DNA of 64,000 nt from Clostridia bacterium. Lineage in GTDB: Bacteria > Bacillota > Clostridia > TANB77 > CAG-508. The notes beneath the pieces are model-generated. The model saw only the letters and a list, made by a program, of their open reading frames with translations. It had not been told where the DNA came from and ran no database searches. The position numbers and the translations under genes were made by a program. The stretch lies in the NCBI GenBank assembly GCA_017626365.1, contig JAGAIV010000036.1:31104-95103 (forward strand), given 5' to 3'. Within the stretch, counting starts at the first letter, position 1. Each line of letters opens with the position of its first letter. This document shows positions 1-52,674 of this stretch, piece after piece.

Positions 1-3000
1 GCACAAGCATATTGGAAATTCTATAAGTTAACACATAGTGGTACAACAGATATTTTTGAAACTTTAATAAAGGATAGAAGTTCTAACATAAAAGTAGGAG
101 TAGACCAAACTGGTGGATATTATGTAGTTGGACCATTTAAAGTTACATACCCAGATGGAGTATATAACGGAAAAAATCGCTTTAGTTGGGTAGAAAAAGT
201 AGAAGCTGTTACAGATACTGGAACTTATCCAGCAGAAGTTCTAGAGTATAGTGACTTTGGAAAAGAAGGAAGTACATCATTAAATGGAAAAGAATTTTAT
301 ATTAAGTTCTATTCTAATACAGCGACAAACGTTAGCTTAAAAGTAAAATTTGGGTATTTAGAATCTTGTAGTGCTACTATGAAAAAATATGTAGGAAAAA
401 GAATGAATTGTAATTGGACACTTCAAACATCAGGAAAATGCGACCATAGTTATAACGATCCATGGGATGCAAGTAAAAATGATAGTAATGGTAATGGAAT
501 ACAAGATAATGGAGAAGTAGGGGATTGGCATGAGTGGAAAGTAGATAAAAAAAGATATGAAGCAAAAGAAGAAGAAGGTTCTGCAACTCAAAGACTAATG
601 GCATTAGAAGGGCAAGCAAGTAAGAATTATAAATATGTAGAAAAAGTATTGCCATTACAACCAATTCCATTAACTATTGATATAGGAGGAAATGTATTCC
701 TAGATAAAGATGAAGGAAAAGTAAATGAAGGAAATAATGTATTCGATGATGGTGAAGGATTAAAAGGTGTAGAGGTGTATTTATATGAAGCATCAGGAAA
801 TGCAGCAAGTGGCCAATATGAAGAAAAACATGTGCACTCAGGAAGTTCTAGTTCAGGAACAGGATGTTATACAACTCCTATATATCATAAACATGAAGGA
901 AATGTAACAGAGGCAGTATATCATACACATACATTAGAATGTTATAAACATGATGATGCAGGTAATGTAATAGATGCAAGTGGAAAAATATTATATGATA
1001 AGAACCGAAATTTTGTACAAAATGGAACTCCAATCATAATATGTGGTAAAGAAGAGAGAAAAACAATTGATTACTATAAAAACACTTGTGCAGGTAAAGT
1101 AACATATTCAACAAGCTATTTTACGTGTACTAAAACAGAAGGAAAGACAATTGATGGTTATGCCTTAGGATGTAACAAAATAGAAGGACAAACGGTAGAA
1201 GGCAGAAAAGAAGTAAAAAATAAAACAATAACAGGTGATAATGGATATTATGAATTTAAAAATTTAAATGCAATGAAGAAATACTATGTAGAATTCGTAT
1301 ACAATGGTATGTTATATACAAATGTTCTACCATTTACTGGTGATAATGCGGAAAAACAATCTAAAGCTACAGAAGCTGCAGTTTCATCAACAAATCGTCA
1401 AGCATTTAATGATAAATTTAAAGAAATTGGTTCTAATCCAAATAACTATATGAGTCCTTCACGTGGAGCATATAACCAAGTCTTTTTACAAGAAGATATA
1501 GCGGATACATTTAAGACAATAGCAAGTAACTATGGCTCACATGGAAATACTGATAAGGAAGTATTTGCATTTGATTGTAGAATAAGAGCACGTTCTGTAA
1601 AGAATTATCCAGTTCTAGATAAATTTGCAATAAGCGAATCTAATGAGACCTTAGGAGGAGAAACATTCCCAGCATTATATGCAGGAGCTGATAATCCAAA
1701 ACATATTAATTTAGGTATCAAAGCAAGACAAACTTTCGACTTAGCATTATATAAAGATGTATTTAATGCAAAATTAAATATTAATGGACAAGAAGAAGTA
1801 TATACTTATGATGCAAGAAAAGATTGGCAAAATGAAGGATTCAGTTATGGAGTAAGAGAAGATTACTACTTAGAAGAATTAAGAAATAAATATATTGAAG
1901 GCAAGGATACTAATATTACAACAACAGAAGTTGCAAGTGAAGGAGAGTATTCACATGAATATAGAACAGAAGAAATCATCAATGGTAACAATGTAAACGA
2001 AAACTACCAATCTTGGTTAAAAGATAATAATTATTTAAATACATTGTATGGCGAAGATAGTAATAAACAATATGCATGGAGAGATATTAACCATGGCATT
2101 ACAGATAAGGATAAATTACAAATTCATGTAACCTACAAAATAGCAATTCGAAACCAATCTAGCGTAGTAGGTTCTGTTACAGAAATTGTTGATTACTATG
2201 ATAGTCATTACCAATTTGAAAAAGCTTATGTGGGAGATAAAGACGGAAAGGAAATTGCTAACACAAAAGTAGATGCTAGTGAAACTTCAATGTACGGTGA
2301 AGCAACAAGAATGGGAGCAAATGGACAATGGACAGTAGGTTCTGAAAAACGAGGATACAAAACAATTTACTTAAGACCAACAGAGAAAAAATTATATACA
2401 GATGATAAAGAACAATACATTTATGTAACATTTGGATTAATTAATCCAGAAAGTACATTAATTGCAGCTGGATTACCACAAGGAAAAAGATTCTATACAT
2501 ATAACCTAGCAGAAATTAATGGATATAAAACATATGGAACAGATATAAAAGATACAAATTCTTTAGGATTAATTGATAGAGATTCAAATCCAGGTAACTT
2601 TAACCCAGCAACATATGAAATGGGAAAAACAGCATTAGAAGATGATACAAGTAAAGCACCAGCATATGCATATTCAATTCGTACATCAAGAACATTAGAA
2701 GGAAATGTATTTGAAGATGCCTTATCAAAAGATGCAACTGCAAGTAAAGAAAAATATGTTGTAAATGTAGCAAAAACAAGATTTGGAAATGGTACAATAG
2801 ATAGTAGTGATAAGAAAATTGAAGGTGTTAAAGTAGAATTAGTTGAAATTAAGAATGGACAATTAGTAGTTCGTCAAACTACTTACACAGATAAAGATGG
2901 ATGGTATGGATTTGGAGCTTTCTTACCAGGTGATTACACAATTAGGTTCACATATGGTGCAGAAGATAAAACAGCTCTAACAACTACATCACAATATACA

Positions 3001-4542
3001 CAAGGTTTAAATGCCACATCATATAACGGTCAAGATTATCAATCAACAACCTTTACAACAAAACAAGGAGAAACTGTAACACCACATAATTATAAAGTGG
3101 ATGCAACTTTACAAAGTATTTATAATGCAAGTAATGCAGCTAAAAATAGTGAAGAAAAAGATGTAACAGTAGCAGATCAAGTTATTAAAAAATATGATAT
3201 AGAGGGATATTATTGGTTTGATGATCCATATATGGCTAATAAATCGGATGCAGAAGATGATGCAGCAAGAAGAGCACAAGTAGTTGCATATTCAAAAACA
3301 GAATATGGAAAAGAAATTACAAACCATAAAGCAGAAGTGTTTAACTCATATATTAACCAAAAGACATTAAGAGAACAAGAGTCTAAAGACGATAAATTTG
3401 ATAAGTTTACACAAGCACAGCCAATGGAGGAAGTTGTTGATACAGAAGCTAAAAATAGAGAGCTTGTTAATGAACTTGAAAGAAGAACCTATATGTATGC
3501 ATATACACCAGAAATCAAAGTAGAGGTTGAGTATACAACAAAACAAATTGAAGGAAACATGAATGCTAAGAAGGCAGCAGATGATAAGAAAGACTACTAT
3601 GAATACAAGATTACAGGAGTTGACTTCGGAGTAGTAGAAAGACCAAGAACGCAATTAACCATTGACCAAGATATTGATCATATTAAAGTTACAGCAGCAG
3701 ATGGAACGACTTTATTAGAATTACAACATGAAGAAACTGGAGACAACTTTAAGGTGGTAGTAAATAATGGTGATAACTACATGTATGCACCAAAGAGTGA
3801 TTTTAGCAAATATGATAAAGAAGAATTACTAAATGTTATCTTAGATGATGAGTTATTAAGTGGTGCAAAACTAGAAGTAACTTATAACATTACAGTAACA
3901 AACAATAGTGAAGCAAATACTGGTACTACAAGAGCAAAAACAATTATTAATTATGTAGCAAATAACTTAAACTTTGATTTAAGTGACAACAATGGTTTAT
4001 GGGAAGTAGTGAAAAAAGAAGATATTCAAACAACATCTCATTCAACATTTATCAATAACGCATCAAGAAATAAAGATGTAAAATTAGTAGATTTAAGTAC
4101 GCAAACAACAGTATTAAAAGCAACAAATGCTAACCCACTTACAAAGGTACTAAATCCAGGAGAAAGCACAACTTCTACATTAACCCTAAAGAAAACACTA
4201 TCTGCAGAAAGTTCAGTAGATGACTTAAGTTACAGTAATATGAGTGAAATCATAGAAATTGATAATACAGTAGGTAGATATGATCATGGAGCAATTCCAG
4301 GAAACCAAAGCTTAGAAGAACAACCACGTGAACATGATACTTCAGGAGCTAGTAGATACGATGAAATAGACCAAACTTCAGGAACAAAGAATGTAAAAAC
4401 AAGATATCCACAAGATGGTAAAATAATCGTAACACCACCAACAGGTTCAAAAATTATTTACTACGTATTAGGAATTACTTTAGCAGTTATATTAGCAACA
4501 GGAATTATCTTAATTAAGAAATTTGTAATACGTAAAAAATAA
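1..4542 (+). CDS. Large cell-wall-anchored surface adhesin, 5' end outside the window. It has several Cna-B-like repeats and a C-terminal sorting signal (TPPTG, hydrophobic helix, KKFVIRKK tail)
   Basis: Frame 1 is open from position 1 with no stop, so the track ORF 379..4542 is an internal Met. Repeated 'DGxYxF / GDYTxxFxYG' Cna-B-like motifs are present. The C-terminus reads ..VTPPTGSKIIYYVLGITLAVILATGIILIKKFVIRKK, a sortase (S/P)PxTG-like signal. Confidence 0.8.
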   Translation, partial: AQAYWKFYKLTHSGTTDIFETLIKDRSSNIKVGVDQTGGYYVVGPFKVTYPDGVYNGKNRFSWVEKVEAVTDTGTYPAEVLEYSDFGKEGSTSLNGKEFYIKFYSNTATNVSLKVKFGYLESCSATMKKYVGKRMNCNWTLQTSGKCDHSYNDPWDASKNDSNGNGIQDNGEVGDWHEWKVDKKRYEAKEEEGSATQRLMALEGQASKNYKYVEKVLPLQPIPLTIDIGGNVFLDKDEGKVNEGNNVFDDGEGLKGVEVYLYEASGNAASGQYEEKHVHSGSSSSGTGCYTTPIYHKHEGNVTEAVYHTHTLECYKHDDAGNVIDASGKILYDKNRNFVQNGTPIIICGKEERKTIDYYKNTCAGKVTYSTSYFTCTKTEGKTIDGYALGCNKIEGQTVEGRKEVKNKTITGDNGYYEFKNLNAMKKYYVEFVYNGMLYTNVLPFTGDNAEKQSKATEAAVSSTNRQAFNDKFKEIGSNPNNYMSPSRGAYNQVFLQEDIADTFKTIASNYGSHGNTDKEVFAFDCRIRARSVKNYPVLDKFAISESNETLGGETFPALYAGADNPKHINLGIKARQTFDLALYKDVFNAKLNINGQEEVYTYDARKDWQNEGFSYGVREDYYLEELRNKYIEGKDTNITTTEVASEGEYSHEYRTEEIINGNNVNENYQSWLKDNNYLNTLYGEDSNKQYAWRDINHGITDKDKLQIHVTYKIAIRNQSSVVGSVTEIVDYYDSHYQFEKAYVGDKDGKEIANTKVDASETSMYGEATRMGANGQWTVGSEKRGYKTIYLRPTEKKLYTDDKEQYIYVTFGLINPESTLIAAGLPQGKRFYTYNLAEINGYKTYGTDIKDTNSLGLIDRDSNPGNFNPATYEMGKTALEDDTSKAPAYAYSIRTSRTLEGNVFEDALSKDATASKEKYVVNVAKTRFGNGTIDSSDKKIEGVKVELVEIKNGQLVVRQTTYTDKDGWYGFGAFLPGDYTIRFTYGAEDKTALTTTSQYTQGLNATSYNGQDYQSTTFTTKQGETVTPHNYKVDATLQSIYNASNAAKNSEEKDVTVADQVIKKYDIEGYYWFDDPYMANKSDAEDDAARRAQVVAYSKTEYGKEITNHKAEVFNSYINQKTLREQESKDDKFDKFTQAQPMEEVVDTEAKNRELVNELERRTYMYAYTPEIKVEVEYTTKQIEGNMNAKKAADDKKDYYEYKITGVDFGVVERPRTQLTIDQDIDHIKVTAADGTTLLELQHEETGDNFKVVVNNGDNYMYAPKSDFSKYDKEELLNVILDDELLSGAKLEVTYNITVTNNSEANTGTTRAKTIINYVANNLNFDLSDNNGLWEVVKKEDIQTTSHSTFINNASRNKDVKLVDLSTQTTVLKATNANPLTKVLNPGESTTSTLTLKKTLSAESSVDDLSYSNMSEIIEIDNTVGRYDHGAIPGNQSLEEQPREHDTSGASRYDEIDQTSGTKNVKTRYPQDGKIIVTPPTGSKIIYYVLGITLAVILATGIILIKKFVIRKK

Positions 4543-4554
4543 AACAAAATAAAA

Positions 4555-4590
4555 ATAGCACACATTTTAAAATGTGTGCTATTTATTTTC
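4555..4590 (+). terminator. Rho-independent terminator after the adhesin gene
   Basis: Perfect palindrome atagcacacatttt/aaaatgtgtgctat followed by a T-rich tract. Confidence 0.7.
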
Positions 4591-4791
4591 TCTAAAACAT
4601 TGAAAAAATCGCCAAAATGTTATAGAATAATGGTGAAAAAATATTTCTTACATAAGAAAAAGTCATATATCATAAAAAAGTATCACAAAAAGTCAGAAAC
4701 TTTTTTAAATAGAGTACTAAATATGACAAACTATTCAAAAGATTAAGATTAAAATAGATACCGATATTTAAAAAAGTAAGAGGTGGTAGAA

Positions 4792-7287
4792 ATGTTTCAA
4801 AATATACAAGGACAAGCTAGCTTTGGTGATGAATATGAAGAAACAGATTATAAAGAAAATAAAATAAAGAGATTTTTAAAAACGGCTATAACGCCTCAAA
4901 AAATATTAATATATATAGCAAGCTTTATGCTATCTACAATCGAGTGCGCAAGTGGAGTTGCACCATTTGCCATAGCAATATTTGCTGCATGCTTTTCAAA
5001 TCGTGTACCAGTTTTAATTGTTTATGTTTTAACATTACTTGGAAGTTTCATTGGACTAGGTGGATCTTCAACTCTTATGTACTTATTAACTTCACTTGTA
5101 TTTATTGTAATGACATTAATTTTTAAACCAAAAGAAGGTTTAGAATATGAAAATGAGCGATTAAAACTAGGAAAGTATGTATTTATATCCGCATTTTTAG
5201 TACAAGTTTCGAAAATATTCTTTGGGAATTTTATGGTATACGATTTACTAATGAGTGCGATGGTAGCAATATCTTCCTATATTTTCTATAAAATATTTGC
5301 CAATTCTATTATTGTTATAAATGAATTTGGAAAAAAGAAAGCATTCGCTATTGAAGAGGTAATAGGTGCAAGTATTTTACTTGCTATTTGTGCATCTAGT
5401 TTTCGAGGATTTGCAATATTTGGTTTTGAATTAAGAACAATATTAAGTATTCTAGTAGTATTAGTACTAGGGTGGAAAAATGGCGTTTTAGTAGGAGCAA
5501 CCTCAGGAATTACCATAGGAACCATTTTAGGATTAATTGGACAAGATGATCCTATTATGATAGCATCCTATGCACTATCAGGAATGATTGCAGGAATATT
5601 TTCAAGATTTGGAAAATTTGGAGTCATTATTGGATTTATTTTAGGAAATGCAATTTTAACTTATGTAACAAATGGAAATACAGCTTCAATTATATACTTT
5701 AAAGAAATATTAATTGCTTCATTAGGATTACTACTAGTGCCAGAAACTATTCAAATTGATATTGAAGAATTATTCGGAAAAGCAAAATTATTACAATCTG
5801 GACCTGCAAGTCGAATTGAAGAAAATAAAGAAACAGTATACAGGCTAAATAATGTATCTGAAACAATAGCAGATATTGCAGATACCTATAAAGAAGCAGC
5901 AGCTACAATTGTAGAAGACGAAGAAATTGAACAAAAAGAAAATCAAAAAATATTTGTAGATGAATTATTAGCTAATATGGATGGCTTTGAAGATAATATT
6001 CTATATGAAGATATCCAAAATATCGAAAATTCAGAAGTTTTAACTGACGTTTTTAAACTATTAATAGAAAACCAGAAAATAACAAGGAAAGATTTGTTAG
6101 ATATATTTGCAAGTCACAATAATTATATTGTGGGATTTGATAATGCAGAAGTAAGTATGCAACTAGAAAAAGATATTGAAAAAATTGTAAATGTAATAAA
6201 TGAATCATACCGCATTAGTAAAGTTAACTTTATTTGGAAACACAAAATGGATGAAAACAAGAAAACAATGGTAAATCAATTAGATGGAGTTTCTAAAGTA
6301 ATTTCTTCTTTAGCAAACGATATGGAAAAAAGAGAAAAAGAAGAAAATGAATTTATTATTGAAAAAGAAGAAATTTTAAAAATTGCAAAAGAACGAAAAA
6401 TTGATATGAAGGATGTAAAAATCCGAAGAGAAAAAACAGGAAGATATATTATTAATGTTTATGTAGATTCTTGTTGTGAAGAAAATGAAAAACGTGGTTG
6501 TACAATAGAAGCGGTAGAAAAAATTCTATCGAAAGTGTTGGAAGACAAAATTGTTATTCAAAAAAATAACTGTGGACAAAAGAAAGAAACCAACCTTTGT
6601 GTAAATACCTACGCATCACAAGATAGATACATGCTACAGCTTGGAATTTCAAGAAAAACAAAAGAAGGTTCACCAATTTCAGGAGATACCAGCAGTAGTT
6701 TAAAACTAGAAGATGGAAAATACTTACTTGCTATTAGTGATGGAATGGGAACAGGACCAAAAGCAAGACAAAGTAGTAAAATAGCAATTAAAATGTTAGA
6801 AAGATTACTAAGTAACGGATTTGATAAAGATAGTTCCATTGAACTAATTAATTCAACTTTATCTTCTGTAAATTCAGGAGAAGATGACACTTATGCAACA
6901 CTAGATATTGCCATTTTAGACTTATATGCAGGAAATATCGAATTCATAAAAAACGGGGCATGTCCGACTTATATTAAGCAAAATGGTAAGGTACAAATTA
7001 TAAAAGCATTATCTTTACCAGCAGGAATTTTAGAAAATATCAGCCTTGTCGTATACGACAAAGACATCGAAAATAATGATATTCTAGTCATGTGCTCTGA
7101 TGGTATCATGGAATCCAATGCAGAATATCAAAACAAAGAATTATGGGTAAGAGACATACTAGAAAGCATTGAAACTGACAATGTCCAAAAAATAGCAGAC
7201 ATCATCACGAAAGAAGCCATAGACAACGGATATGGACAAGTAAAAGACGACATGACCATAATTGTTGCAAAAATGATAAAAAGATAA
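4792..7287 (+). CDS. spoIIE: Stage II sporulation protein E (SpoIIE). It has an N-terminal polytopic membrane domain and a C-terminal PP2C phosphatase
   Basis: About 10 predicted TM helices, then PP2C motifs (GDTSSSL..ISDGMGTGPKA, CSDGIMES). The ATG at 4792 has RBS aagaggtgg 6 nt upstream; the track start 4783 is a GTG. Confidence 0.85.
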   Translation: MFQNIQGQASFGDEYEETDYKENKIKRFLKTAITPQKILIYIASFMLSTIECASGVAPFAIAIFAACFSNRVPVLIVYVLTLLGSFIGLGGSSTLMYLLTSLVFIVMTLIFKPKEGLEYENERLKLGKYVFISAFLVQVSKIFFGNFMVYDLLMSAMVAISSYIFYKIFANSIIVINEFGKKKAFAIEEVIGASILLAICASSFRGFAIFGFELRTILSILVVLVLGWKNGVLVGATSGITIGTILGLIGQDDPIMIASYALSGMIAGIFSRFGKFGVIIGFILGNAILTYVTNGNTASIIYFKEILIASLGLLLVPETIQIDIEELFGKAKLLQSGPASRIEENKETVYRLNNVSETIADIADTYKEAAATIVEDEEIEQKENQKIFVDELLANMDGFEDNILYEDIQNIENSEVLTDVFKLLIENQKITRKDLLDIFASHNNYIVGFDNAEVSMQLEKDIEKIVNVINESYRISKVNFIWKHKMDENKKTMVNQLDGVSKVISSLANDMEKREKEENEFIIEKEEILKIAKERKIDMKDVKIRREKTGRYIINVYVDSCCEENEKRGCTIEAVEKILSKVLEDKIVIQKNNCGQKKETNLCVNTYASQDRYMLQLGISRKTKEGSPISGDTSSSLKLEDGKYLLAISDGMGTGPKARQSSKIAIKMLERLLSNGFDKDSSIELINSTLSSVNSGEDDTYATLDIAILDLYAGNIEFIKNGACPTYIKQNGKVQIIKALSLPAGILENISLVVYDKDIENNDILVMCSDGIMESNAEYQNKELWVRDILESIETDNVQKIADIITKEAIDNGYGQVKDDMTIIVAKMIKR

Positions 7288-22926: not shown

Positions 22927-22989
22927 AAAAATTGACATAATATTAATAAAATGCTATAATCTGATTAAAATCTCAAAGGAGGAAAGCGT

Positions 22990-45534: not shown

Positions 45535-47289
45535 ATGAAGAAAAATAAAAATCATACATTAGCGCATGTTTTAGAAATGGCAAAGCCCCATAAAAAAACA
45601 ATTATTATCGTTACCATTCTTTCATTGTTAATTAACATAGGGGAGATTTTAAAACCATATTTAATAAAAATTGTAATGGATGATTACTTAAGCCAAGGCA
45701 TTTTTCAAAAAGGAATGATTACAATTGGGATGATAGGGGCAGCATACATAGGAATTGTAATTTTGGGTAATATTATCGATTTTATTGCAAGCACTGCAAC
45801 GAATATGATGGGAGAAGATATTATCTATACTATGAGAAACCGCCTATTTAAATACACACAATATGCAAATATTTCATTTCATGACCGTACACCAGCAGGA
45901 AAATTATTTGTAAGAATTACCAATGATGTAGAAGATATTTCTAGCTTATTTAAAGATGTTATAACAACATTTTTTAAAGATATGATATTAATTGTTGCAA
46001 TAGTTAGTATTATGATTTACTTTAGTGCTAAATTAAGTTTATTGTCTTTTATCGTTATACCATTTATTATCATATTTTCTGTTGTACTTACAAAAATACT
46101 AAACAAAATTTACGATAAAGCAAAAGCAATTAAAACAAAATTAAATACATTTTTAGCAGAATCAATTTATGGTGCAAAACTAATCAAAATATTTAATATT
46201 CAAAAAGAAAAACAAGAAGAATGCGAAAATCTAACACATAGTTTTAGAAATTCAAGATTACCAGGTGGAATTATTGAAGGACTACTTCCGGCACTAATGA
46301 CAATATTAGAAAATGTAGCAATCAGTATTATAGTATGGGCAGCAGTTAATAATGTAGTTGGGCAAAGCTTAGATGTTGGTTTAATATATGTATTTATAAC
46401 ATATATTAAGCAACTATTTGAACCAATTACAAGAACAATTGATAATATAGAAACCGTACAAGAAGCATTTGTATCGATTAATAAAATATATAAAATATTA
46501 GACAATAAAGAATACTTAGAAGATTTAGATTCTGGTATGGAATTAACAAATGTAAAAGGTCGTATTGAATTTAAAAATGTATGGTTTTCCTATGATAATC
46601 AAAAATGGGTACTAAAAAATGTTAGTTTTACAATAGAACCAGGACAAAGTATTGCATTGGTAGGAAAAACAGGATGTGGAAAAACGACGATTACAAACCT
46701 AATCAATCGTTTCTATGAGATTCAGCAAGGTGAAATTTTATTAGATGGAGTAAATATTAAAAACATCAATAAACGAAGCTTAAGACAGCATATTGGTATC
46801 ATTTTACAAGATCCATTCATTTTTGCAAGAAGTATTAGAAGTAATATAAAACTAAACAATTCTGACATTACAGAAGATGATATTATAAATTCCGTAAAAT
46901 TATCTTCTGCAGAAGACTTTATTTCATCACTCCCAAATGGAATCGATGAAGTGGCAAAAGAAAGAGGTTCATCATTCTCAGCAGGACAAAAACAATTACT
47001 AGCATTTGCAAGAATATTTGCACATAACCCATCCATTTTTATCTTAGATGAAGCAACAGCAAATATCGATACCCATACAGAACAATTAATTCAAAAATCA
47101 ATCGATATCATCTCTACAAAAAAGACATCAATCTTTATTGCACATAGATTAGCAACTATTGTGAATGTAGATAAAATTATTGTACTAGATGCAGGAGAAA
47201 TTGTAGAAATGGGAAATCATGTAGAACTTTTAAAAACAGGGGGATACTACAGTAAGTTATATAACTCATATTATGCAAGTTTAAATTAG
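45535..47289 (+). CDS. ABC exporter (permease + ATPase), partner 2
   Basis: GKTGCGKTT, SAGQKQL and ILDEATA. Confidence 0.8.
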   Translation: MKKNKNHTLAHVLEMAKPHKKTIIIVTILSLLINIGEILKPYLIKIVMDDYLSQGIFQKGMITIGMIGAAYIGIVILGNIIDFIASTATNMMGEDIIYTMRNRLFKYTQYANISFHDRTPAGKLFVRITNDVEDISSLFKDVITTFFKDMILIVAIVSIMIYFSAKLSLLSFIVIPFIIIFSVVLTKILNKIYDKAKAIKTKLNTFLAESIYGAKLIKIFNIQKEKQEECENLTHSFRNSRLPGGIIEGLLPALMTILENVAISIIVWAAVNNVVGQSLDVGLIYVFITYIKQLFEPITRTIDNIETVQEAFVSINKIYKILDNKEYLEDLDSGMELTNVKGRIEFKNVWFSYDNQKWVLKNVSFTIEPGQSIALVGKTGCGKTTITNLINRFYEIQQGEILLDGVNIKNINKRSLRQHIGIILQDPFIFARSIRSNIKLNNSDITEDDIINSVKLSSAEDFISSLPNGIDEVAKERGSSFSAGQKQLLAFARIFAHNPSIFILDEATANIDTHTEQLIQKSIDIISTKKTSIFIAHRLATIVNVDKIIVLDAGEIVEMGNHVELLKTGGYYSKLYNSYYASLN

Positions 47290-47371
47290 AAACAAGAAAA
47301 AGTTTAAGTGGAATAACGAAATTTGAGAAAAAACATATTGACAACATAGCAAAAAAAGATATAATATAAAT

Positions 47372-47458
47372 ATAAAAAAGAGAAAAAGGCTAAGCCCTTT
47401 TCCCTGGGTTGTTAGAATTGAAGTTTGTTTTTGAAGGGTAAACTTCAATTCTTTTTCT
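47372..47458 (+). ncRNA. Candidate small RNA: a stand-alone promoter followed by a terminator, with no ORF
   Basis: TTGACA(47338)-16-TATAAT(47360), then about 85 nt containing ..ggctaagcccttttccctggg.., then the terminator agaattgaagttt-(13 nt loop)-aaacttcaattct plus ttttt. Confidence 0.35.
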
Positions 47459-47611
47459 ATGTATACAGATACTATAATCGAACAAGTCCAATTAAAGACA
47501 CTGTAATACTAATAGAAAGAACCACTAATGCTATATCCTTCTTGATAATATATATTGCGTTTTATAAAAATATATAGTATAATAATAGCAGATTAAAAAT
47601 GGAGGAAAAAC

Positions 47612-47782
47612 CATGGGAATAAAAAGAGAATTTAATTTTGATGATGATATTGAGTTATTAAACTTAAAATATCAAATGAATAATGGAAGTCTATTAGAGT
47701 ATTTTCAAAATGAAGTAGGAGCAAACGAACCAATACAAAAACAAATGAATGGTGAAATACAAGAACCGAAAAATCAATTATA
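47612..47782 (+). CDS. Small acidic protein (56 aa), missing from the ORF track, immediately upstream of the sortase
   Basis: RBS aatggagg precedes the ATG at 47612. Sequence is MGIKREFNFDDDIELLNLKYQMNNGSLLEYFQNEVGANEPIQKQMNGEIQEPKNQL. A terminator-like hairpin follows at 47790..47835. Confidence 0.4.
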
Positions 47783-47911
47783 AAATTAAATATTAAGATT
47801 TGTAAAAACAATGTAAATAAATCTTAATATTTTTTTTTGAAAAAATACTTGGATAATAATATAAGCAATGTTATAATAAAAATGTAGTATTAAATAAAAT
47901 GGGAGAATAGT

Positions 47912-48688
47912 ATGAATCAGATTTTAGTAACAGAAAAATTGTATGTTACTCCTGAACTGAAAAGAAAAAAGAAGATGTATAAATTCAACTTTTTCTTATC
48001 AGTCTTTTTAGTGTGTTCACTATTTTCTTATTATATTTATGCAGAATACGATAGAAACAGAAATGAAGAAGTATCAAAAGAAATTTTAGCAAGTATCGAT
48101 TTAAAATATTATGAAGAAGAAGAAAAAACGAAAAATAGTGATGTACGTATGGAAGATAATGTTTTAATTGTAACACTTGGAGGACAATTAAAAGAAAGAG
48201 AAGAAATCAATATTACTAAACTTGCAGCTTCTGTACAATCACAAATTGAAAACAAGAAAAAAGAAAAAGAAATTTTTACAACTGAAACTGGAGATACATA
48301 CTCAACAGATGCTGTATTAAATATACCATCACTAGAAATTAATTATCCAATATTAGACAAGACTACAAATGAGTTACTAAAAATATCTCTTACTAAATTT
48401 TGGGGAGGAGATCCAAATGAAGTTGGAAACTATGTAATAGTAGGGCATAATTACAGAAATAAGAAAATGTTTGGAAGATTATCAGAAATTCAAATTGGAG
48501 ATAAAGTAGAATTAACAGACTTAGAAGGAAGAACACTTTCTTATGAAGTATATGAGAAATATACAGTAAATCCAGATGATACGGCTTGTACAAGTCAACA
48601 TACAAATGGAAAAAAAGAAATAACATTAATTACTTGTACCAACTATGGAACACAAAGATTAGTGGTAAAAGCAAGAGAAATAAAATAA
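47912..48688 (+). CDS. srtB: Sortase (class B-like)
   Basis: N-terminal TM anchor. Catalytic His (VGHNY), TLITCT Cys motif, and an Arg near the C-terminus. Confidence 0.8.
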   Translation: MNQILVTEKLYVTPELKRKKKMYKFNFFLSVFLVCSLFSYYIYAEYDRNRNEEVSKEILASIDLKYYEEEEKTKNSDVRMEDNVLIVTLGGQLKEREEINITKLAASVQSQIENKKKEKEIFTTETGDTYSTDAVLNIPSLEINYPILDKTTNELLKISLTKFWGGDPNEVGNYVIVGHNYRNKKMFGRLSEIQIGDKVELTDLEGRTLSYEVYEKYTVNPDDTACTSQHTNGKKEITLITCTNYGTQRLVVKAREIK

Positions 48689-50363: not shown

Positions 50364-51059
50364 ATGTATAATATTTTAGTATGTGATGATGATAAAGAAA
50401 TTGTTGAAGCAATCGAGATTTATTTAGGTAAAGAAGGATATAAAATTTTTAAAGCATATAACGGTGAAGATGCTTTAAAAGTGATACAAGAGAATGAAAT
50501 CCATTTAATCATTTTAGATATTATGATGCCCAAAATTAATGGTATTAAGGTGGCAGAAAAAATTAGAAAAGATAAAGCTATCCCCATTATTATGCTTTCA
50601 GCAAAATCGGAAGATTATGATAAAATCAATGGCTTAAATACAGGGGCAGATGATTACATGACAAAACCATTTAATCCATTAGAATTGATTGCAAGAGTGA
50701 ATTCACAAATTAGAAGATATACAACACTTGGTTCCATCAAAAAGGAGGAAGGAAACATTTATCAAACAGGAGGATTAATCATAAATGATGACACAAAAGA
50801 GGTTAGTGTAGATGGAAATAAAATAAAACTAACTCCAACTGAATATAACATCTTGAAATTTCTAACAAAAAATAAAGGAATAGTATTTTCCATTGAACAA
50901 ATTTATGAGAATGTATGGGAAGATGAAGCATATGGAGCAGAAAATATTATTGCTGTTCATATAAGACATATCCGAGAAAAAATAGAAATTAATCCAAAAG
51001 AACCAAAATACTTAAAGGTAATTTGGGGAATTGGGTACAGAATAGAAAATATAAAGTAA
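50364..51059 (+). CDS. OmpR-family response regulator
   Basis: Receiver domain plus winged-helix domain. Confidence 0.85.
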   Translation: MYNILVCDDDKEIVEAIEIYLGKEGYKIFKAYNGEDALKVIQENEIHLIILDIMMPKINGIKVAEKIRKDKAIPIIMLSAKSEDYDKINGLNTGADDYMTKPFNPLELIARVNSQIRRYTTLGSIKKEEGNIYQTGGLIINDDTKEVSVDGNKIKLTPTEYNILKFLTKNKGIVFSIEQIYENVWEDEAYGAENIIAVHIRHIREKIEINPKEPKYLKVIWGIGYRIENIK

Positions 51060-51072
51060 AGGAGGAAAAAAC

Positions 51073-52674
51073 ATGAAAGATATAAGAAATTCAAATGCAT
51101 TAAAAGCAATTTGTTATATACTAGTACCATGTTTAATACTTATTATCATACTTAGTGCTATTTCAATAGGGTATTATGCAAGCGAAATAGATAGAAATGA
51201 ATTTAATCAATATCAAATAGATACAGGAGTAATAACAGAATATGAGGGAGATATTTATAGAGAAAATCTGGTTTATCAATTATCTGCTAATACATACCAA
51301 ATAGCACCAAGCATTTTTATGATATCAAGCATACTATTAATTATTTGTATGATATATATCATAATAAGTATTGGTCATAAAAAAGGAGAAGATGGTATTT
51401 ATTTAGACAGTTTAGATAAAATACCTTATGAATTACTATTAATACTTACATTAATCTTATTTGGAATAGAGATGGCTTTATTAGCAGGACCATGTTATCA
51501 GTTAATATTTGAAGAATATAATAGTTACATTATTAATACTGGAATTTTAGCAGCTATTTTAGATGGAGTTATTATTTATATTACAATTACTACATTAGTA
51601 ATAACAACAATTAGAAGAACGAAAGCACATATTTTTTGGAAGAATACAATTGTTTATAAATTATTTCAATTTATATTTAAAGGTTTATTTATAAATTTTA
51701 GCGAAACTGTAAAATTAGCAGTAGAATATGGTGGATTTATTATAGCATCTGTTATTCTTATATTTATTACAATGCAAAATCCGATTGTTGTTTTTTTCTT
51801 ACTAGGTTTTTGGTATTATATTTTTAAAAAGATATTAAGTCATATCAATCAATTCAATAAAGTAAGAGAAAAAATTGGAAAAATGTATAAAGGAGATATT
51901 AGCGTTCCATTGGACGAAGAGGAATTATATGGAGAACTAAGGCAGATAGCAAGGGAACTAAACGATATTTCGGGAGGACTTTCTAATGCAATAGAGGAGG
52001 CAACAAAAAGCGAACGTTTAAAAACGGAATTAATTACTAATGTTTCTCATGATATAAAAACACCGTTAACTTCTATTATTAACTATGTTGATTTAATGAA
52101 AAAAGAGGAGATAGAGAATCCTAAAGTACAAGAATATTTAGAAGTGTTAGATAACAAGTCACAAAGATTAAAGAAACTAACAGAAGATTTAATTGAAGCA
52201 TCAAAAGCATCTTCTGGAAATATCAAACTAACCATGGAAAAATTAAACGTAAAAGAACTAATAAAACAAGTTAGTGGAGAATTTGAAGATAGATTTCATA
52301 ATAGAGGATTAGAAATAATTGAAAACTATCCAGAAGAAGAAGTAAGCATTACAGCAGACAGTAGATATTTATATAGGGTAATGGAAAATGTATATGGAAA
52401 TATTGCAAAATACGCATTAGAAAATTCAAGAGTATACATTGATGTTATAAAAGAAAACAGAAAAGTACAAATTATTTTAAAAAATATTTCACAAGATAAG
52501 CTAAACATAACAGTAGATGAATTAATGCAGCGTTTTGTAAGAGGAGATGTTTCAAGAACCACAGAAGGGTCTGGACTTGGAATATCCATTGCAAAATCTT
52601 TAACAGAACTACAAAATGGAAAGTTTGATATTTTCTTAGATGGTGATTTATTTAAGGTTGTAATTGAATTTTAA
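51073..52674 (+). CDS. Sensor histidine kinase with a multi-TM N-terminus
   Basis: H-box VSHDIKTPL and ATPase G-boxes. Confidence 0.8.
   Translation: MKDIRNSNALKAICYILVPCLILIIILSAISIGYYASEIDRNEFNQYQIDTGVITEYEGDIYRENLVYQLSANTYQIAPSIFMISSILLIICMIYIIISIGHKKGEDGIYLDSLDKIPYELLLILTLILFGIEMALLAGPCYQLIFEEYNSYIINTGILAAILDGVIIYITITTLVITTIRRTKAHIFWKNTIVYKLFQFIFKGLFINFSETVKLAVEYGGFIIASVILIFITMQNPIVVFFLLGFWYYIFKKILSHINQFNKVREKIGKMYKGDISVPLDEEELYGELRQIARELNDISGGLSNAIEEATKSERLKTELITNVSHDIKTPLTSIINYVDLMKKEEIENPKVQEYLEVLDNKSQRLKKLTEDLIEASKASSGNIKLTMEKLNVKELIKQVSGEFEDRFHNRGLEIIENYPEEEVSITADSRYLYRVMENVYGNIAKYALENSRVYIDVIKENRKVQIILKNISQDKLNITVDELMQRFVRGDVSRTTEGSGLGISIAKSLTELQNGKFDIFLDGDLFKVVIEF

Follow-up and report, generated by a model that had tools for sequence, protein, structure and literature searches.

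A 64,000-nucleotide stretch from an uncultured clostridial genome (Clostridia bacterium, contig JAGAIV010000036.1; hereafter the window) carries, between a pair of ABC exporter genes and a sortase gene, a short cassette at positions 47327-47534. We are inclined to read this cassette as a type I toxin-antitoxin-like module of the 3'-overlapping kind, placed in a variable intergenic slot, whose plus-strand RNA would be the antisense half. No described family accommodates it, and the copy in this genome is probably degenerate. The region as a whole is best explained as three units without mutual relation, namely the cassette, a gene for a 56-aa protein (pep56) and the sortase gene. An earlier sequence-only reading had taken the plus-strand unit of the cassette for a riboswitch-like or small RNA (sRNA) regulator of sortase expression; this false lead can be removed, as nothing supports an RNA-based control of the sortase here. 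The cassette is a candidate for a type I toxin-antitoxin family not described before; it comes from uncultured gut Clostridia, where modules of this kind easily escape notice, both partners being unannotated. Furthermore, the example shows that a cassette of this kind can set a promoter of very high strength immediately in front of resident genes. The source lineage has a GC content of ~29% and consists of spore-forming gut Clostridia, as seen from matches to SpoIIE and SpoVB and from identical sequence in public contigs.

The sequence-only reading had described the plus-strand unit as a promoter, a transcript without an open reading frame (ORF) and a strong terminator, and these three elements stood. 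Both promoter hexamers are perfect, no credible ORF was found between promoter and terminator, and the terminator hairpin (hairpin 2, Table 1) scores as a terminator on the plus strand. Perfect promoters of the type TTGACA-N16-18-TATAAT occur five times in the window, all of them on the plus strand (at 22932, 29060, 35671, 47338 and 59043), as compared with 0.21 expected from shuffled sequences, and a chance origin of the promoter at 47338 is therefore unlikely; for several of the five the next ORF lies 60-450 nt downstream. It is reasonable to read 47338-47458 as a predicted short non-coding RNA gene. The unit is conserved in locus L007 (86% identity) and in locus L045, which keeps both hexamers perfect around a spacer that differs in sequence and measures 17 nt against 16 in the window, and the promoter appears to be under selection. 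No further copies of the unit were found inside the window. A search of the whole window against Rfam at gathering thresholds gave no match, c-di-GMP riboswitches included, and a search of 47200-48000 at E up to 10 returned terminator-like noise only, on the minus strand.

The analysis of the two hairpins of the cassette points to opposite strand preferences. Hairpin 1 folds on the minus strand with -14.9, -14.3 and -15.4 kcal/mol in the window, L007 and L045, respectively, versus -7.6, -6.7 and -11.5 kcal/mol on the plus strand, and its U-run (U6-7) is present on the minus strand only. Its right arm shows C/T transitions at three positions, where U-A or U-G pairs survive on the minus RNA and A-C mismatches result on the plus RNA. 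Hairpin 2 folds on the plus strand with -14.3 (z -4.55 versus shuffled sequence), -14.1 and -16.1 kcal/mol in the same order, versus -12.9, -11.2 and -12.3 kcal/mol on the minus strand; its U-run is on the plus strand only, and so is its inner stem, which is composed of different bases in each of the three variants. Since these preferences are opposite in all three variants, the two transcription units appear to be convergent. The C-rich tract cccttttccctggg (47395-47408), which had been regarded as a possible anti-Shine-Dalgarno element of the plus-strand transcript, is indeed present, but it lies inside hairpin 1, that is, in a minus-strand terminator and not in a plus-strand leader element. 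Hairpin 2 probably also terminates the ABC exporter operon, as there is no other hairpin between the stop codon of the latter (47289) and 47379.

The minus strand carries a small hydrophobic ORF (47534..47472) that had been missed in the earlier reading, and its complete form is seen in L045. This locus came out of a metagenome search in which the arms of hairpin 2 served as query and which yielded 51 loci; L045 was the single informative one, and the other 50 were palindromes without relation to the cassette. Between L045:23-226 and window 47327-47525 the identity is 84%, and the rest of L045 shares nothing with the window; the plus-strand ORFs downstream of the cassette have no relation to pep56 or the sortase, and the sequence upstream of it is limited to 22 nt by the contig start. 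The block kept in L045 extends ~70 nt beyond the terminator of the plus-strand RNA, and it is there that the minus strand encodes the end of the hydrophobic ORF. The complete ORF in L045 comprises 26 aa, MELCVGIALVVLSIGITVSLIGLVRL followed by TAG, with a GGAGG 8 nt before the ATG, a promoter TTGACT-17-TACATT with a TG extension and a leader of ~93 nt. The predicted minus-strand mRNA of L045 is ~270 nt long and the plus-strand RNA there ~90 nt. In the minimum-energy fold of this mRNA the Shine-Dalgarno (SD) sequence is paired with CCUCAC near the 5' end, and the leader is thus predicted to sequester the toxin SD, an arrangement that is frequent in type I toxin mRNAs. The window and L007 retain IALVVLSI(S/G)ITVSLIGLVRL and the stop codon, corresponding to the last 20 codons of the L045 ORF. 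Between window and L045 this ORF shows five synonymous codon changes and one non-synonymous change, and between window and L007 three and one.

We propose that the perfect promoter would give rise to a plus-strand RNA of ~87 nt ending at hairpin 2, and that the minus-strand mRNA encoding the short hydrophobic peptide would end at hairpin 1. Given these two ends, the plus-strand RNA would be able to base-pair over its full length with the untranslated 3' end of the mRNA for the peptide, halting ~12 nt before the stop codon. On the model of txpA/RatA and bsrG/SR4, pairing of the antisense RNA with the 3' end of the toxin mRNA would then lead to decay of the latter. By the published definition (PMC8594479), the mRNA of a type I system measures 150-400 nt, its toxin has 20-60 aa and the antisense RNA, which in Gram-positive families is placed on the 3' side, has a length of 60-200 nt. 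The sizes and the layout of the cassette appear to fit this definition. For the antisense RNA the sequence provides a promoter with a 12/12 match, a plus-strand terminator, a predicted length of ~87 nt and a position inside the predicted 3' end of the minus-strand unit. For the toxin ORF it provides 26 aa with SD and ATG in L045, only the last 20 codons being kept in the window. RNA and hydrophobic ORF move together as one block of ~210 nt.

The comparison with characterised systems shows likenesses in layout to several of them. As in txpA/RatA and bsrG/SR4 of Bacillus subtilis, the genes are convergent and the peptide is small and hydrophobic (layout in PMC8594479), the antisense RNA of ~90 nt has a strong promoter and complements the toxin mRNA at its 3' end (PMC8594479), and the toxin SD is sequestered in the leader (predicted in L045). 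The cassette differs from both systems in that there is no sequence or Rfam similarity, the overlap stops short of the ORF, the peptide, here a predicted toxin only, is shorter (26 aa) and without a polar C-terminal tail, and the window copy is without the 5' end of the toxin gene. With the par locus of Enterococcus faecalis (Fst/RNA II) and SprA1/SprA1as of S. aureus it shares convergent transcription over common terminator hairpins and an overlap placed only in the 3' untranslated region, so that the ORF remains uncovered (PMC8594479). Those two systems function by way of extra complementarity near the toxin start, outside the overlap, whereas none was found here; the module, if working, would therefore probably act via the 3' duplex. 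Modules of Clostridioides difficile such as CD0977.1/RCd11 are likewise found in clostridial hosts, with unannotated small hydrophobic ORFs, convergent genes that overlap at their 3' ends and an antitoxin with two hairpins (PMC7699646). Unlike the present peptide, their toxins have 34-47 aa with lysine-rich tails and are sited in prophages or beside CRISPR arrays, while this cassette shows no similarity to phage or plasmid records.

Several observations weigh against a toxin-antitoxin module. The cassette was seen in three sequence variants only, of which a single one has a complete peptide gene. The peptide lacks the charged C-terminal tail usually seen in type I toxins of Gram-positive bacteria. 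No known family is matched by the RNA or by the peptide, the latter giving no match in Pfam at E up to 10. Pairing of the antisense RNA with the toxin start region, in the manner of Fst and SprA1, is no better than in shuffles, the duplex being weaker than 77% of them. The synonymous bias in the ORF is suggestive, as it rests on few substitutions, and the cassette transcripts and the toxicity of the peptide are predictions. In the window itself the ORF has no ATG, no SD of the L045 type and no promoter of the L045 type, and the interval 47535-47680 contains no minus-strand promoter matching at least 9/12 positions. Followed upstream, the frame stays open as far as 47561; the sequence before IALVV reads ..IYIIKKD, and the sole canonical start is a GTG at 47525-47523, giving 17 aa, with AGAAGGA 10 nt upstream. 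The space upstream of the ORF is taken by the plus-strand promoter of pep56, and L007, ~93% identical overall to the window, has the same junction where the similarity to L045 ends inside the ORF. Since the peptide ORF has lost the L045-type 5' end, the window most likely holds an intact antisense-RNA gene beside a 5'-truncated or poorly expressed toxin ORF, from which a short peptide might at best be weakly expressed.

Phage records, plasmid records and viral contigs were searched for more copies of the cassette, and nothing real was found; the antisense-frame ORF, used as a stand-in query, gave no match. Contigs of independent assemblies begin in or just before the cassette: those of L004 and L006 at window 47374, that of L007 at ~47361, directly after an Illumina adapter, and that of L045 22 nt before the cassette. 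These contig starts could reflect strain heterogeneity or extra cassette copies.

An intact RNA gene next to an apparently disabled ORF would also suit an independent sRNA of the RsaE/RoxS type that acts in trans through a C/U-rich seed, in which case the minus-strand ORF would encode an ordinary small membrane protein that overlaps the RNA at the 3' end only. The conserved perfect promoter and terminator are in line with such an sRNA, as is the pyrimidine-rich tract, which is present in all three variants. We nevertheless consider it unlikely, because RNA and ORF travel as one ~210-nt block, there is no match to RsaE or to any other Rfam family, the sequence of the seed tract is not conserved and no targets have been identified.

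The lack of any other hairpin between 47289 and 47379, together with the AT-rich DNA of the window, in which promoter-like sites overall number 35 versus 26 expected, would be compatible with a mere terminator region of the ABC operon, in which the promoter is decaying or has arisen by chance and the minus-strand ORF is likewise fortuitous. However, the 12/12 promoter survives a divergence of 16%, the relatives L008, L035 and L091 manage without such a terminator block, and the block recurs in L045 beside different downstream genes and with an ORF that has SD, ATG and promoter, all of which makes this explanation very unlikely.

We compared 26 species-level loci with sortase homologues (83-43% identity) and further contigs obtained via homologues of the 56-aa protein. 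In close relatives the conservation starts at the pep56 promoter and covers the promoter, the ribosome binding site (RBS), the ORF, the terminator and the sortase promoter. The slot between the ABC stop codon and the pep56 promoter is almost empty in L008/9, L017, L035/36 and L091-94, holds an unrelated gene of 60-80 aa (ORF-X) in L010-L016 and L034, and contains the promoter-terminator unit only in the lineage of the window itself, L001-L007. Upstream of the pep56-sortase pair the unit is absent in all other species examined, and the conservation of a leader upstream of sortase genes was thus not borne out.

A riboswitch-like leader or an sRNA controlling the sortase, for instance through the C-rich anti-SD tract, had its attractions: the promoter and the terminator follow each other on the same strand as the downstream genes, a UUUUCCC could pair over ~7 bp with the sortase RBS GGGAGAA, and read-through from the strong promoter would reach pep56 and the sortase. 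These are outweighed by the findings above and by the position of the unit, which is separated from the sortase by ~450 nt and by pep56, an independently promoted and terminated gene. The sortase has a conserved promoter of its own, Rfam searched with the plus strand at E up to 10 gave no match, the unit recurs beside unrelated genes in L045 and is missing from every other species that keeps the pep56-sortase pair, and the C-rich tract differs between the variants and forms one arm of a hairpin for which selection acts on the other strand. Control of the sortase by this RNA is very improbable indeed; the unit appears to be neither a leader nor a sortase-tied regulator, and such a role is not supported. 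The analogy drawn with C. difficile does not hold either, since the c-di-GMP riboswitches there precede the substrate genes and the gene of the protease ZmpI, and not the sortase gene (PMC4591827).

That the unit is a decayed ORF-X remnant, with promoter and terminator kept and the coding sequence deleted, is extremely improbable: the position is the same, the ORF-X promoter likewise comes directly after the ABC stop codon with a short GGGC..GCCC-type hairpin in the leader, and ORF-X does decay, as judged from the L014 copy with an in-frame stop (TGA), but the window region has no nucleotide or protein similarity to any ORF-X cassette and its clear homologue, in L045, is of another kind. ORF-X forms a family with the pattern ..WY.YG.G..F......A....K.VIN.., each member having its own terminator and a strong promoter that overlaps the stop codon of the ABC genes; it has no match in Pfam. 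In L018 (sortase 67% identical) a minus-strand ORF within 3000-3900 replaces pep56 and the ABC genes, and by eye it has the look of a PemK/MazF-type toxin.

Table 1. Coordinates of the cassette, of neighbouring genes and signals in the window, and of ORF-X copies in related loci.
Feature	Position	Strand	Basis or remark
Perfect sigma-A-type promoter TTGACA-16-TATAAT of the predicted antisense RNA	47338..47365	+	12/12 match
Predicted antisense (antitoxin-like) RNA, ~87 nt	47372..47458	+	ends inferred from -10 box and terminator U-run
Hairpin 1 (47379-47405) with U6 (47378-47373), intrinsic terminator of the leftward transcript	47373..47405	-	scored as minus-strand terminator
Hairpin 2 (47414-47452) with U5, intrinsic terminator of the antisense RNA	47414..47458	+	scored as plus-strand terminator
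Toxin-like small hydrophobic ORF, conserved part IALVVLSISITVSLIGLVRL with stop TAG (47474-47472)	47472..47534	-	tblastn and sequence
pep56 promoter TTGCGT-17-TATAAT	47555..47583	+	block cTTGtATTTTAT..TAGTATAAT conserved in all relatives
pep56, 56-aa acidic protein, GGAGG RBS	47613..47783	+	lineage-restricted family
pep56 terminator hairpin ATTAAGATTT..AAATCTTAAT with U9	47788..47838 (hairpin 47788-47832)	+	-11.9 kcal/mol, z -4.56
Conserved block TGTAAA-N5-TGTAAA-N-AAATCTTAATA, then T-run	47801..47830		upstream of sortase -35
Sortase promoter TTGGAT-17-TATAAT, TG extension, after T/A-rich tract	47849..47877	+	conserved in all 13 aligned loci, L017-L019 included
Membrane-anchored sortase; His in VGHNY, Cys in TLITC, Arg in QRLVV	47912..48688	+	Pfam PF04203, 1.7e-28
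Adhesin sorting signal TPPTG(S), hydrophobic helix (21 residues), KKFVIRKK	4432..4539	+	adhesin ends at 4542
ORF-X copies in related loci	L010:3362-3547, L011:3263-3505, L013:3391-3600, L015:3429-3632, L016:3410-3592, L034:2048-2257		

The 56-aa ORF had been noted as separately promoted, with a strong RBS and a terminator-like hairpin of its own; all this stands, and the ORF is, on the sequence evidence, a real gene under purifying selection. It is not unannotated, as had been thought, since gene finders call it in public assemblies and it appears at NCBI as a 'hypothetical protein'. Homologues numbered 17 by word search and 13 clusters in a profile search of 1.84 billion cluster representatives. 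The N-terminal 40 residues are strongly conserved, MG.(K/H)REF.F..D.ELLNLKYQ...(D/E)YF, and against ten relatives the ratio of non-synonymous to synonymous changes (pN/pS) is 0.06-0.6, the changes being biased to third codon positions. Relatives carry the terminator hairpin of pep56, a CCAATTG..CAATTGG hairpin across the stop codon, or both. An AlphaFold2 model (mean pLDDT, the predicted local confidence score, 73) shows helices at residues 9-22, 27-33 and 39-50, and pep56 is probably a three-helix, cytoplasmic protein; the model gave no fold match in the PDB, and the sequence no match in Pfam or NCBIfam. Between the window and L007:286-456 the gene is 99.4% identical at the DNA level, where the adjoining sortase gene is 92.5% and the antisense RNA 86% identical, which points to recent recombination or to an extra constraint at the nucleotide level. 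A promoter-like site at 47806..47777 on the minus strand, antisense to pep56, is not conserved in relatives and was discarded.

In 16 lineages, whose flanks vary, pep56 is the immediate upstream neighbour of the sortase, and a functional link between the two is therefore plausible. The upstream gene is another one in L013, and L091-L094 have an operon of an extracytoplasmic function (ECF) sigma factor instead of SpoVB downstream. L018 has the sortase without pep56, and beside the still more distant homologues of the sortase in L020-L033 no relatives of pep56 were found either.

Upstream of the sortase promoter, the TGTAAA block is kept in the window, L034, L035 and L008-L016, also where a terminator hairpin is impossible, and it occurs once in the window. 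The ~11-nt spacing of its repeats suggests a candidate binding site for a response regulator. A syntenic OmpR-type regulator and kinase are encoded at 50364-52674.

The sequence-only reading had called the enzyme class-B-like. Membership of the sortase superfamily is well supported by sequence, the Pfam match being accompanied by a TIGR01076 score of 62 bits (cut-off 39), but the assignment to class B is not. NCBIfam class B models gave no match at E up to 0.01, and the chains of C. difficile SrtB reached only E 0.02 and 18 bits. Models of classes C, D, E and F all scored far below their cut-offs, class D with 41.5 bits versus 165 and class C with 75 versus 160. The best match in the PDB is 4d70 (CpSrtD), with E 6e-15 over residues 115-256 and with the Cys of TLxTC and the Arg aligned. 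The spacing between His and Cys is ~63 residues, which matches classes A, C and D, while class B has ~90 with a long insertion. As judged from these comparisons, the sortase is not class B and most resembles classes D and C; since it remains below the cut-offs of both, even though the nearest structure is of class D, no class was assigned.

CpSrtD of Clostridium perfringens is thus the best solved relative, and it also comes from a spore-forming host. It prefers LPQTGS (PMC4498605), and the signal of the adhesin in the window likewise ends in TGS. The window sortase differs from it in an extra conserved N-terminal tail and a long linker, in a candidate motif with T-P-P for L-P-Q, and in that no substrate gene stands beside it. 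This N-terminal tail is the best conserved part of the sortase subfamily: the cytoplasmic segment MNQILVTEKLYVTPELKRKKK.YK, the membrane helix and YIYAEYDRNK.E..S.EIL (window 47912-48090, residues 1-60) are nearly invariant in all 30 homologues, as seen at the sortase starts of L008-L035 and L091-L094, even at 43-50% overall identity. Together with pep56, the invariant cytoplasmic tail offers possible links to surface-protein anchoring. In a more far-reaching proposal, pep56 would be a cytoplasmic partner or regulator dedicated to this sortase subfamily, might bind the invariant basic tail MNQILVTEKLYVTPELKRKKK.YK and would be the first small protein known as a sortase cofactor; in addition, the cassette would found a new clostridial type I toxin-antitoxin family whose toxin is unusually short and tail-less. 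In this combined form we regard the proposal as decidedly unlikely. Two distant loci, L027:5030-6797 and L020:5095-5472, have a second sortase gene near the homologue, and in L027 a 340-aa LPKTG protein is encoded between the two sortases, an arrangement resembling a pilus-type cluster.

The giant adhesin had been named as the only obvious substrate. It is indeed the only protein of the window with a three-part C-terminal sorting signal, its C-terminus being ...IVTPPTGSKIIYYVLGITLAVILATGIILIKKFVIRKK (IVTPPTGS, helix and KKFVIRKK), but a second giant adhesin lies just left of the window, with 1688 aa and the ending IVGTKTGE, helix and KKKVLRKI. Both are seen in tandem in L037, at 1-2024 (1688 aa) and 2044-7083 (1679 aa, corresponding to the window adhesin), with SdrD_B and CLIPPER domains; their motifs, GTKTG and TPPTG, differ, and (V/I)IV precedes both. 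TPPTGS is invariant in eight adhesin homologues, whose identity is 52-75% where they match a C-terminal query of 239 residues. C. difficile SrtB cleaves PPKTG (PMC4591827), and the invariance in the homologues, together with the comparison with this motif and with the LPQTGS of CpSrtD, makes TPPTGS a credible sorting motif. The two tandem adhesins (TPPTGS and GTKTGE) are the most likely candidate substrates of this sortase. The arrangement recalls the C. difficile SrtB system in the xPxTG-type motif (PPKTG versus TPPTG) and in large adhesins encoded away from the sortase (PMC4591827), and it differs in that the sortase here is apparently not class B and that there is no c-di-GMP riboswitch within the window. 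About 30 residues before TPPTGS (window ~4340-4365) all the adhesin homologues (P0018-P0026) contain the sequence EHDTSGAS, which could be a site of processing or cross-linking.

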